A stretch of DNA of 64,000 nt from Staphylococcus phage Twort, in the sequence record NC_007021.1; one strand, 5' to 3'. Within the stretch, counting starts at the first letter, position 1. Each line of letters begins with the position of its first letter. This document shows positions 34,768 to 39,884 of the stretch, piece by piece. Position numbers and translations under genes: made by a program. The notes below the pieces were generated by a model. The model worked only from the letters and a program-made list of their open reading frames with translations. It was not told the DNA's origin and ran no database searches.

Positions 34768-34796
34768 ATTATAGTGTATATTGGAAAGTATGTCAA
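34768..34796 (-). promoter_or_regulatory. sigma-70 consensus promoter on the minus strand (TTGACA-17-TATAAT)
   Basis: Plus-strand TGTCAA at 34791-34796 and ATTATA at 34768-34773. Confidence 0.7.
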
Positions 34797-35059: not shown

Positions 35060-35431
35060 TCACTTAATATCTTTAATTAATTCTTTGATTAGTTGTAAGG
35101 TAGGTTCTTGGTCTACATCTACAACTAATGTATCTAACTTCTCTAATACTTTTTCTTTTATATACTTATTCTCTTTTGCAGGTTCTACAAGCTCTATAAT
35201 CTTATCTAACTTTTCTTCAAATATGCGATTGTTTTGATTTGTTGTTTTACAAAAATCACCTAAGATAAAGCTATTTACATAGTCAGTCTCTTTACTAACA
35301 TCGTAAATATATGAAACTTTATAATTAATGTCATTTACCGTTCTTCTGGTAGACTCTGAAGATGTATATAATTCTTTAACTTTATAAAATGTGTCGGATA
35401 TATATTTAGCATATGTTTCATTAAACTTCAT
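35060..35431 (-). CDS. hypothetical protein
   Basis: 123-aa ORF. Confidence 0.6.
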   Translation of the reverse strand: MKFNETYAKYISDTFYKVKELYTSSESTRRTVNDINYKVSYIYDVSKETDYVNSFILGDFCKTTNQNNRIFEEKLDKIIELVEPAKENKYIKEKVLEKLDTLVVDVDQEPTLQLIKELIKDIK

Positions 35432-37685
35432 ATAAAAATTCCTTTCTTAGCCCTACAATATTGTCCCTATTTTCTTTTAGATAATTTTTATCTTGCTTTT
35501 CTAGCCAATAGTAGAATTCTCTTAGGGTTTTATCTTTTTGTAGGATATATTGTTTAGGTCTATTTCCACTAGACTTAGCTACAGAAGAAATTAAACCTCT
35601 CATATACTTCCAGTTGTTATAATATTCTAATTTTTGTTTGACCATAAATTTATTGCTGTCCTCAAAGACATAACCTTCAATTTCTTCCTTGTTATCCTCT
35701 GTAACAAAGTTATAGAACTCTACCCATGTATTTAAAGTAGTAACTTGTTTTTTGTAAGGTAATCCTAAGTACTGTGCTGTAGATTTTACTTCTTTGTAAG
35801 GAAGTTTATTAAACTGTAATTCATTCTTAATAATGTCGAGTAAAACAATTTTGTTTTCGTTGTATTCTATGATATGGGGGTCGTTTTCAATATCAATAAC
35901 CTCAAATACAAATGTGGAGTTAGAATATTTTAATGTTTCTTTTAAAGTATTTAAGTCAATTTTTGAATTTTCTACAATGGTTTTAAACATTAGCGCATAT
36001 TCATTGTCTTTAGATAAATGAGTGCTAGATTTGCTTGCGTAGATAATCTCATCTCTCTTTTCGTCATAGAACATTAAGCCTAAGAAACCATTTTCTTTTT
36101 CATAAACATCTACTGGGAATGATAAAGTGTCAGGCAAGTTTTCTAACTTAGTTTCGTTCATTTCATTGATGTTGAAAAATTTAGGATACCCTCTTCCTAC
36201 AACTGTATGGTCATCTTCTCTAATAAACAGTCCTCTTGCGGTAACAGATAATTGGTTCCAGTTCTTTTTAGTAAAGGCATGTTTAGTAAAATTGACGGAT
36301 ACAATATCATCATGAGTAGGTTTTACTTTAATTGTTTTTCTATCCTCTTTTGCAATATTTAAATAGGTTTCTACAGTTAGCTCTGGGTCTATTTCTTTTA
36401 AATGGTCTCTAGTATCTAATAACAATTTTTCATTATATACTGGGTTTTTGATTTCGTGAGGCATGATAGAGTTATCTTCATCAATAGTAACAGCTCTTAA
36501 GTGTCCTCCTTTTTCTACACGTCCTTCTAGGTTAATAGAGTCTTTATACGTGTCTAAAGGTTGTCTGTATAAGTTTCTATGACCATGAATCTGTATAGTG
36601 TCAGAATTATCCCATTCAGAATCAATATCAAATTCATAACCGCCAACACCATTAATAATTTGGTGAGTTGATACCATATTTAAATTATCTAACATTTGAG
36701 GCATAATACCACCATGTGTTATTACATAATCCTGTCCTTTATATGTGAAATATGCAAGTTGTTGTAATTTTTCTACTACGGTCTTAATTCTTTTTTGTGT
36801 AATACCAAACTTAATAAAACTTCTAAGAGTTGAAATAAAACCCCTAGCTCGAAACACTTTCATTGCCTTATTGAAAAACTCATCTTTATCTTCATAAATA
36901 TCTGTTAATTCTTCGAGTTCCTGATTATCTAAGTAGATAAAGTTTCTTAGATGTCGTTCGTGATTGCCCTCTAATAAAATAACATTTGGCTGTTTACAAA
37001 TCAATTCTAGGTATTCAAAAACTTCTTTTGTTTCTATCCCTCTATCGAAATAATCTCCAACAAAAATAAATAATTCATTTGGATTATCTAAAATTTTATT
37101 TACGGAAGCAAAAGCAGATAAAACTGTAAAGCATGAATGAACGTCTCCAATTACATGAATCTTATTGTAGTGGTCGACCTTCATAAAATCTTTATCCCAT
37201 TTTAATGTATCTAATAAGTTATCTTTATCTACACTCTTAGCATAGCTTGGGATATTTTCATGTTGCAATCTATCATACATATTTTCAATAACTTCTTCTG
37301 GGACTTGCTTATGAGACTCTCTGTTTTTATTTCTTTCTAATAAAGTATCTAAGTCCTCTTCCAATGTTACAACATAAGTTCTATATCGGTATTTTCTTGC
37401 AAGTTTTTCATATTTTTTGATTAGTTTACTTGTTGAGTGAGTAGCATCAATAACAGTAAAATCTCCACGAATCATACGCTGTTCTAAAATTTCAAGTAAA
37501 AGTGTCCATATATAATTATCATTTTCTTGTGTAGTTACTTGTTGTCCTTTTGTGTTGTAAACTGGTGAGCCACATTGCGTTCTTAAAACATCTGGAGAAA
37601 GCGTGAATTGTTCTAGTCCATTTTCTTTGATGTAGGTGGATTTACCTACACCAGGAACTCCCCGTAAAAGTACTAATTGTCTCAT
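35421..37685 (-). CDS. fused polynucleotide kinase / metallophosphoesterase / RNA-ligase-like (adenylyltransferase) protein; Pnkp-like RNA repair enzyme
   Basis: P-loop GVPGVGKST plus SPDVLR (kinase). GDVHSCF, GDYFDRG and GNHERH (calcineurin-like phosphatase). KENGF (ligase motif I, KxNG), EGYVFED (motif IV) and MVKQK (motif V). The internal Met at 37685 probably starts the protein; the ORF track starts at 37724. Confidence 0.8.
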   Translation of the reverse strand: MRQLVLLRGVPGVGKSTYIKENGLEQFTLSPDVLRTQCGSPVYNTKGQQVTTQENDNYIWTLLLEILEQRMIRGDFTVIDATHSTSKLIKKYEKLARKYRYRTYVVTLEEDLDTLLERNKNRESHKQVPEEVIENMYDRLQHENIPSYAKSVDKDNLLDTLKWDKDFMKVDHYNKIHVIGDVHSCFTVLSAFASVNKILDNPNELFIFVGDYFDRGIETKEVFEYLELICKQPNVILLEGNHERHLRNFIYLDNQELEELTDIYEDKDEFFNKAMKVFRARGFISTLRSFIKFGITQKRIKTVVEKLQQLAYFTYKGQDYVITHGGIMPQMLDNLNMVSTHQIINGVGGYEFDIDSEWDNSDTIQIHGHRNLYRQPLDTYKDSINLEGRVEKGGHLRAVTIDEDNSIMPHEIKNPVYNEKLLLDTRDHLKEIDPELTVETYLNIAKEDRKTIKVKPTHDDIVSVNFTKHAFTKKNWNQLSVTARGLFIREDDHTVVGRGYPKFFNINEMNETKLENLPDTLSFPVDVYEKENGFLGLMFYDEKRDEIIYASKSSTHLSKDNEYALMFKTIVENSKIDLNTLKETLKYSNSTFVFEVIDIENDPHIIEYNENKIVLLDIIKNELQFNKLPYKEVKSTAQYLGLPYKKQVTTLNTWVEFYNFVTEDNKEEIEGYVFEDSNKFMVKQKLEYYNNWKYMRGLISSVAKSSGNRPKQYILQKDKTLREFYYWLEKQDKNYLKENRDNIVGLRKEFLYEV

Positions 37686-37686
37686 A

Positions 37687-37992
37687 TTAACAGTCCTCCC
37701 TACCTTCTTTGAGATAGTTCTCATATTTTTTCTTTAAAGCAGGATTTTTGCTAGATAATATAAATTCAAGTATCTCTTTATCCGTGAAAATTTTTGTATA
37801 TTCTTCTTCCCATTCTACATCTTTATAATTGTGTTCTCCTGTTTCTTCAAGATTGTTTAAAGCCATCTCAGCATATATCTTCGCATCAATTAACCATCTT
37901 GTATACATGCTTGAAGGGTCTAAAAACTTTATTTGATTTTCATAATTAATAATATCTGTTTTTAATTTAAGTTTTGCTTGTTCTTTATTCAT
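37687..37992 (-). CDS. hypothetical protein
   Basis: 101-aa ORF. Confidence 0.6.
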   Translation of the reverse strand: MNKEQAKLKLKTDIINYENQIKFLDPSSMYTRWLIDAKIYAEMALNNLEETGEHNYKDVEWEEEYTKIFTDKEILEFILSSKNPALKKKYENYLKEGREDC

Positions 37993-38249
37993 TATAGCAC
38001 CTCATACGTTTTATGGAATATTTCAGGTTTAACTGGATAGAATTCACCATGTACGCCTTGGACAATATAATCATTCAATCTAGCCTCTAAATTGCCTTCT
38101 AAAGTTTTTATAATTAAATACCCTTGATGCCTTGAAACGCAATACCTAACTTGACCATTAGACCAATTCTCTATTTCTTCTGCACTTTCCAAATCTGTAA
38201 ACTGAACAAATTCAATTTCTACTGGTTTCTTCCTAGCTTTCTGAATCAT
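37992..38249 (-). CDS. hypothetical protein
   Basis: 85-aa ORF; ATGA-type overlaps with its neighbours. Confidence 0.6.
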   Translation of the reverse strand: MIQKARKKPVEIEFVQFTDLESAEEIENWSNGQVRYCVSRHQGYLIIKTLEGNLEARLNDYIVQGVHGEFYPVKPEIFHKTYEVL

Positions 38250-38953
38250 TCTAACTCCTCCAATTTAATAAATGGTAATTCTATATCTCTAAAAACTGCT
38301 CCTACATCACACAACAACATATCATTATGTTTTTCTACCTGACCACTACTAGTAGGTGTATGCCCACATACGTGTATAAAACCATCTTTTCTAGGTTGAA
38401 AATCCCTAGACCACATTAACTGGTCTACTGTTTGTCCTTCTACAGGTTTCCAACTTACACCACCAGAATGAGTAAATATATATTTATCTTTCTTATAATA
38501 CCTCCTACAATTAGTCATAAACACTTTAAACTTCCTATAATCTTCAGATTCTTTAAGTTTATTTAGTTCATTTTTAATAAAATCATAATCGTTCCTTAAA
38601 ACATCTTCTACAATGTTACATGTTAAAGTTGCAATATCAACACCGTAAGAGTCAAGTGTTTCCATGCAATATCTTGATAGCCACTCAATATCATAAATAC
38701 CTAATCGGTCTATATTCTCTATAATCCTATATAACTCATCATCATGATTTCCTAGTAGGGCTACTACATTTTCATCATTTAATAATAAATCAAATAGATA
38801 GTTCACAACATCCTTAGACCTATCACCTCTGTCTATATAATCTCCTAAGAATACTATTGTATCTTCTGGTTTACGCTCTTCAATTATTTTATTCATTAGT
38901 CTCATAAGTTTATCATACTCTCCATGTATATCTGGGATTACAAATATGCTCAT
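38246..38953 (-). CDS. Ser/Thr-protein-phosphatase-family metallophosphoesterase
   Basis: PDIHGE, GDYIDRG, GNHD and a GH motif. Confidence 0.8.
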   Translation of the reverse strand: MSIFVIPDIHGEYDKLMRLMNKIIEERKPEDTIVFLGDYIDRGDRSKDVVNYLFDLLLNDENVVALLGNHDDELYRIIENIDRLGIYDIEWLSRYCMETLDSYGVDIATLTCNIVEDVLRNDYDFIKNELNKLKESEDYRKFKVFMTNCRRYYKKDKYIFTHSGGVSWKPVEGQTVDQLMWSRDFQPRKDGFIHVCGHTPTSSGQVEKHNDMLLCDVGAVFRDIELPFIKLEELE

Positions 38954-39824: not shown

Positions 39825-39849
39825 AACAACCCCTCCTTAATTACATTAT

Positions 39850-39884
39850 ATAACAGAAAAGAACCCGTGTCAACAGGTTCTTTA
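39850..39884 (-). terminator. minus-strand rho-independent terminator
   Basis: Plus-strand AAAGAACC...GGTTCTTT hairpin, with a T-run in the minus-strand reading. Confidence 0.6.

Follow-up and report, generated by a model that had tools for sequence, protein, structure and literature searches.

The gene and its neighbourhood

The window, a stretch of 64,000 nucleotides from the genome of Staphylococcus phage Twort (NC_007021.1), carries a minus-strand gene in which Pfam profiles and sequence motifs identify a fusion of a P-loop kinase, a binuclear metallophosphoesterase and an adenylyltransferase ligase, as the original prediction had proposed (Table 1). The limits of the open reading frame, 35421..37724, exceed the likely coding part. 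The start at 37685 is considered likely because it is preceded by a GGGAGG Shine-Dalgarno sequence 9 nt upstream, borders on the preceding gene's stop codon and yields the 754-aa product annotated in both Twort and phage PT94. This product is 100 % identical to the NCBI entry 'RNA ligase' of Staphylococcus phage Twort, and the public record thus already labels the gene by its third module. The full-length AF2 model of the fused protein has a pLDDT of 94.1 and a pTM of 0.87.

Table 1. Features of the locus (positions in the window; residue numbers refer to the product concerned)
Feature	Position	Strand	Details
Fused gene, predicted trifunctional RNA repair	35421..37685	-	stop codon 35421-35423; product 754 aa
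Module 1, P-loop polynucleotide 5'-kinase (predicted), residues 1-162	37200..37685	-	PF13671 4e-22
Kinase key residues		-	P-loop K15 (37641-37643); D32 (37590-37592), presumed general base; R35, R122
Module 2, binuclear metallophosphoesterase (2',3'-cyclic phosphodiesterase/phosphatase, predicted), residues 170-415	36441..37178	-	PF00149 3e-16
Phosphatase key residues		-	D181, H183 (37137-37139), D211, R215, N241, H242, H324, H369, N385 (36531-36533)
Phosphatase-ligase linker, residues 416-436	36378..36440	-	sole confidence dip of the full-length model (block 421-430, pLDDT 77)
Module 3a, adenylyltransferase domain with Rnl1-like N-subdomain, residues 437-686	35628..36377	-	
Module 3a key positions		-	motif I nucleophile K530 (36096-36098); Ia K552; III E595; H604 (35874-35876); IV E670-G671; V K683/K685
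Module 3b, five-helix C-domain, residues 687-754	35424..35627	-	aligns with Trl1-LIG C-domain
Module 3b conserved residues		-	Y689, W692, K693 (35607-35609), R696 (35598-35600), R747
Free-standing lambda/NinI-like metallophosphatase, 235 aa	38246..38953	-	PF00149 2.6e-19; phrog_246 'NinI-like' 6e-64
Two small ORFs between the phosphatase-bearing genes	37687..38249	-	37992-38249, 85 aa, phrog_419; 37687-37992, 101 aa, phrog_7534
123-aa ORF	35060..35431	-	shares 11 nt with 3' end of fused gene; without family match
Candidate sigma-70-type promoter, TTGACA-17-TATAAT, 12/12	39845..39873	-	pattern match only
Next perfect match to a sigma-70-type promoter, downstream of the unit	34768..34796	-	pattern match only

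The second metallophosphatase noted earlier is real, as indicated by its PF00149 and phrog_246 matches, but it had been placed two genes downstream, whereas in the sense of transcription it lies two genes upstream, since the two are minus-strand genes. It resembles lambda phosphatase in size and in the motifs DxHG, GDxxDRG, GNHD and GHTP (DIHG at residue 8, GDYIDRG at 37, GNHD at 68 and GHTP at 197), and lambda phosphatase itself acts in vitro as a 2',3'-cyclic phosphodiesterase (PMC2190708). An hhalign comparison with the phosphatase module of the fused protein aligned only the first 74 columns. The distribution of the lambda-like gene is much wider than that of the fused enzyme and independent of it; the two proteins are probably functionally independent, though encoded in the same putative transcription unit. 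The promoter pattern upstream is a candidate for the start of a unit that includes both phosphatase-bearing genes.

As possible partners, the two small ORFs upstream and the 123-aa ORF at the 3' end were considered and rejected, having no informative family match and not being kept beside the gene in phage CF1 or in prophages; the 123-aa ORF occupies the same position in PT94, but not in CF1. The proposed absence of a Hen1 partner was borne out, as a scan of ORFs in the minus-strand block between about 32.0 and 44.5 kb revealed no methyltransferase, and none lay within 10 kb of four homologs.

The healing modules

Profile searches assigned the three modules to AAA_33 (residues 4-141, 4e-22), Metallophos (175-380, 3e-16) and RNA_lig_T4_1 (PF09511; 483-689, 3.5e-45), and all the motifs on which the fusion had originally been proposed were found in the product: GVPGVGKST (9-17) and SPDVLR (30-35) in the kinase, GDVHSCF (180-186), GDYFDRG (210-216) and GNHERH (240-245) in the phosphatase, and KENGF (530-534), EGYVFED (670-676) and MVKQK (681-685) in the ligase. 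Conservation was counted over 117 full-length relatives, in which the catalytic residues are kept and are invariant apart from the positions given below at 114/117 or 116/117.

The kinase module matches the polynucleotide kinase family phrog_505 (2.3e-17), and its nearest solved relative in a search with the family profile is the kinase of Clostridium thermocellum Pnkp (CthPnkp; 4gp7, E 9e-14). K15, D32, R35 and R122 are each present in 117/117 relatives. The profile likewise covers the whole phosphatase domain of CthPnkp (4j6o, E 6e-13), the nearest solved relative of the second module, and matches lambda phosphatase (1g5b, E 3e-13); a helical insert is predicted within this module from the secondary structure of residues 243-304. 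The metal-ligand residues are invariant, and H183 (114/117), R215 (117/117) and H242 (117/117) correspond to CthPnkp His189, Arg237 and His264, which are required for the Mn-dependent monoesterase step in particular (PMC2190708). A Paenibacillus clade has Gln at the position of His189.

The kinase and phosphatase modules of T4 Pnkp and CthPnkp also work on DNA ends in vitro, and in some phages the gene stands among nucleotide-metabolism and replication genes. Both points would suit an enzyme that heals and seals nicks with 5'-OH and 3'-phosphate ends in DNA, during replication or after attack by host nucleases. This reading is nevertheless regarded as very improbable: the sealing module belongs to the Rnl1/Rnl6 lineage, the characterized members of which join single-stranded RNA ends in loops, and SPbeta-like elements have a separate ATP-dependent DNA ligase nearby.

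The sealing module

The ligase part is of the Trl1-LIG (Rnl6) type and has fungal Trl1 as its best match in sequence and, on predicted models, in structure; the expectation of a ligase-like nucleotidyltransferase at the C-terminus was thereby confirmed, with motifs I-V present and K530 opposite Trl1 K148. In the alignment, R484, K502, F503, K530 and K552 correspond to Trl1 R99, K120, F121, K148 and K169, and E595, E670, K683 and K685 to E218, E300, K323 and K325, the functional roles of which are described in PMC6379707. The all-helical C-domain that defines the Trl1-LIG clade follows motif V. A profile of the C-domain by itself retrieved the expected PDB target in the expected register at E 0.45-0.7, which is not significant on its own. 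The adenylyltransferase catalytic residues are invariant over myoviruses, siphoviruses and prophages with unrelated tails, and the C-domain of T4 Rnl1 is not shared by the Twort protein, both of which argue against a non-catalytic, structural ligase module of the kind seen in tail-fibre attachment by T4 gp63 (Rnl1). That idea, prompted by related families being named 'RNA ligase and tail fiber protein attachment catalyst' in PHROG and GenBank, appears scarcely credible.

By alignment, H604 (117/117), K693 (116/117) and R696 (117/117) would be the counterparts of Trl1 His227, Arg334 and Arg337, with Lys in place of Arg334. T4 Rnl1 has Asn-Arg where the Trl1-type triad has His, as does phage G gp265. 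In Chaetomium Trl1-LIG this triad enforces specificity for 2'-PO4 ends (PMC11404444, PMC12440814). The conserved putative triad raises the possibility of a Trl1-like pathway in the phage, in which the metallophosphoesterase would act essentially as a cyclic phosphodiesterase, the ligase would require or prefer a 2'-PO4, and the resulting junction 2'-phosphate would later be removed by host Tpt1/KptA or the neighbouring lambda-like phosphatase, or be tolerated. Such a pathway would accord with CthPnkp, whose cyclic phosphodiesterase cuts the P-O3' bond to give a 2'-PO4 end as its first product, and which is converted into a diesterase-only enzyme by H189A/D or D392N (PMC2190708); RNA ends healed by the H189D enzyme can be sealed by yeast ligase. 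Moreover, Gln replaces this His in the Paenibacillus clade, and N385, invariant in the family, stands at His369+16, the spacing of CthPnkp His376 and Asp392.

On balance the Trl1-like pathway is judged unlikely. The residues of the monoesterase step are kept as H183, R215 and H242, which argues for removal of the 2'-phosphate, and the equivalence of N385 and Asp392 is only presumed, a PDB search with a profile of residues 305-420 having returned no match; the invariant E387 might fill the Asp392 role instead. Plant tRNA ligase is 2'-PO4-dependent although it lacks both arginines, which makes the triad an imperfect predictor (PMC12440814). Finally, no Tpt1/KptA homolog was found in the window or in the neighbourhoods L001-L007. 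When an E. coli KptA sequence, validated as PF01885 (161 bits), was used as a tblastn query, 98 phage records were retrieved, 0 of them from Staphylococcus phages, and the kptA neighbourhood of phiCD211 contained no RNA ligase. Bacillus phage G gp265, a ligase fold match near a KptA gene, was rejected as a Twort-type enzyme because it combines an HD-kinase with a T4-Rnl1-like ligase, aligns only as far as motif V and lacks the His of the triad.

Distribution of the family

Clustered at 50 % identity, the family comprises at least 556 clusters. Phages of Bacillota and their SPbeta-like prophages account for most occurrences, and the annotations are inconsistent, being variously protein phosphatase, kinase, ATPase, baseplate protein or hypothetical. 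No paper was found that characterizes the architecture or measures the activity of a member, although Burroughs & Aravind 2016 (NAR) may list it; the RNA ligase of the Kayvirus papers is a different protein of about 294 aa, and a preprint on anti-defence in the SPbeta group makes no mention of the gene.

One Paenibacillus homolog, a single case, adjoins known anti-defence genes. Together with the patchy, accessory distribution, this adjacency fits an arms race, and the bulk of the family resides in lytic and temperate phage genomes. Both observations weigh against general RNA maintenance, in which the enzyme would mend stress damage or the effects of the phage's own or competing toxins, or protect lysogens from secreted RNase toxins. 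This reading, considered improbable, would be favoured by the many homologs in temperate SPbeta-like prophages, by a Thermoactinomyces homolog in an apparently chromosomal, non-prophage-like context beside an HTH regulator, and by bacterial Pnkp/Hen1 and RtcB being cellular repair systems as well (PMC7790460). Some members may serve in housekeeping or stress repair, as the Thermoactinomyces context indicates.

Proposed function

The reading favoured here, and held to be fairly probable, is that of an autonomous, single-polypeptide RNA heal-and-seal enzyme built from Pnkp-type healing and Trl1-LIG-type sealing modules. The N-terminal kinase would phosphorylate the 5'-OH of a broken RNA, and the central metallophosphoesterase would open and then remove the 2',3'-cyclic phosphate; if it resembles C. 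thermocellum Pnkp, this would first give a 3'-OH/2'-PO4 end, from which a 2'-OH end is produced. The ATP-dependent ligase would adenylylate K530, transfer the AMP to the 5'-PO4 and join this end to the 3'-OH. A Hen1-like activator would not be needed, because the ligase is of the Trl1-LIG type with its own helical C-domain.

The enzyme, presumably expressed early, probably acts without a partner protein to mend RNAs broken by host defence nucleases, and a role in counter-defence is plausible. Speaking against it are the single tRNA (Met) in the window, the lack of any anticodon-nuclease-related gene there and the apparently chromosomal Thermoactinomyces homolog. If the prediction holds, the family would provide a simple, Hen1-independent, one-protein RNA repair machine, possibly of use as a reagent. 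In therapeutic-phage lineages (Twortvirinae, Sextaecvirus), the gene is a widespread candidate for a counter-defence role.

A more far-reaching proposal, which we consider rather doubtful, would see in this family the counterpart, among prokaryotic viruses, of the eukaryotic Trl1 ligase domain, perhaps even its evolutionary origin, with sealing of 3'-OH/2'-PO4 ends as in Trl1. It would imply a 2'-phosphate-junction RNA repair pathway in bacteria, with a metallophosphoesterase replacing the 2H cyclic phosphodiesterase and the junction phosphate cleared by a bacterial Tpt1/KptA or by some phosphatase, for instance the putatively co-transcribed lambda-like enzyme.

Structural papers on Trl1 describe the Rnl6 C-domain and the residues that bind the 2'-phosphate as found only in fungal tRNA ligase, and treat them as an antifungal drug target. 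The same C-domain with its signature residues occurs in hundreds of phage and prophage clusters, which extends the Rnl6 clade to bacterial viruses. Both the origin of eukaryotic tRNA ligase and 2'-phosphate-dependent ligation in bacteria are thus directly testable now.

Comparison with known RNA repair systems

RNA heal-and-seal enzymes themselves are known, whereas the combination of Pnkp-type healing modules with a Trl1/Rnl6-type ligase in one protein was not found described. The original prediction had assigned the protein the domain order of bacterial Pnkp from the Pnkp/Hen1 system. The order itself stands, since CthPnkp is likewise a single polypeptide with kinase, binuclear metallophosphoesterase and ligase from N- to C-terminus, and equivalents of its Asp187, His189, Asp233, Arg237, Asn263, His264, His323 and His376 are kept in the Twort family. 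The ligase, however, is of the Trl1/Rnl6 type, and the Rnl4-type ligase domain of bacterial Pnkp, activated by Hen1-N, was not found in the Twort protein. Membership in the Pnkp/Hen1 family was rejected on the ligase clade, the lack of a Hen1 partner and the score against the Pnkp equivalog model TIGR04075 (70.4 bits, below the curated cutoff of 750).

The fungal Trl1 ligase domain (Rnl6; PDB 6N0V, 6N67, 6N0T, 8RBJ and 9QW7) shares with the Twort module the Rnl1-like N-subdomain, motifs I-V (KENG, EGxVxE/R, KxK), the five-helix C-domain and counterparts of His227, Arg334, Arg337 and Arg389. The differences include Lys for Arg334, Glu675 for the motif IV Arg305 and a C-domain of 68 residues as against about 80. 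Trl1 is arranged as ligase, GTP-dependent kinase and 2H cyclic phosphodiesterase, whereas the Twort order is kinase, metallophosphoesterase and ligase, with no 2H/LigT domain in the Twort protein or in 56 representatives. Trl1 is a eukaryotic enzyme, while that of Twort belongs to a bacterial virus and lacks a Tpt1 partner.

In T4, two proteins, Pnkp and Rnl1, counter the PrrC anticodon nuclease by tRNA repair, in contrast to the one polypeptide of Twort. As originally noted, the Twort phosphatase is a calcineurin-type metallophosphoesterase, unlike the HAD-type (DxDxT) phosphatase of T4 Pnkp. The PF09511 adenylyltransferase domain is common to Rnl1 and the Twort ligase module, but the tRNA-specific C-domain of Rnl1 (about 255-374) is absent from the latter, the alignment ending at motif V and only 245 residues superposing. 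The three-protein Pnkp1-Rnl-Hen1 system (Capnocytophaga; PDB 4XRP) likewise relies on a kinase, a phosphatase and a ligase activity to repair RNA in bacteria.

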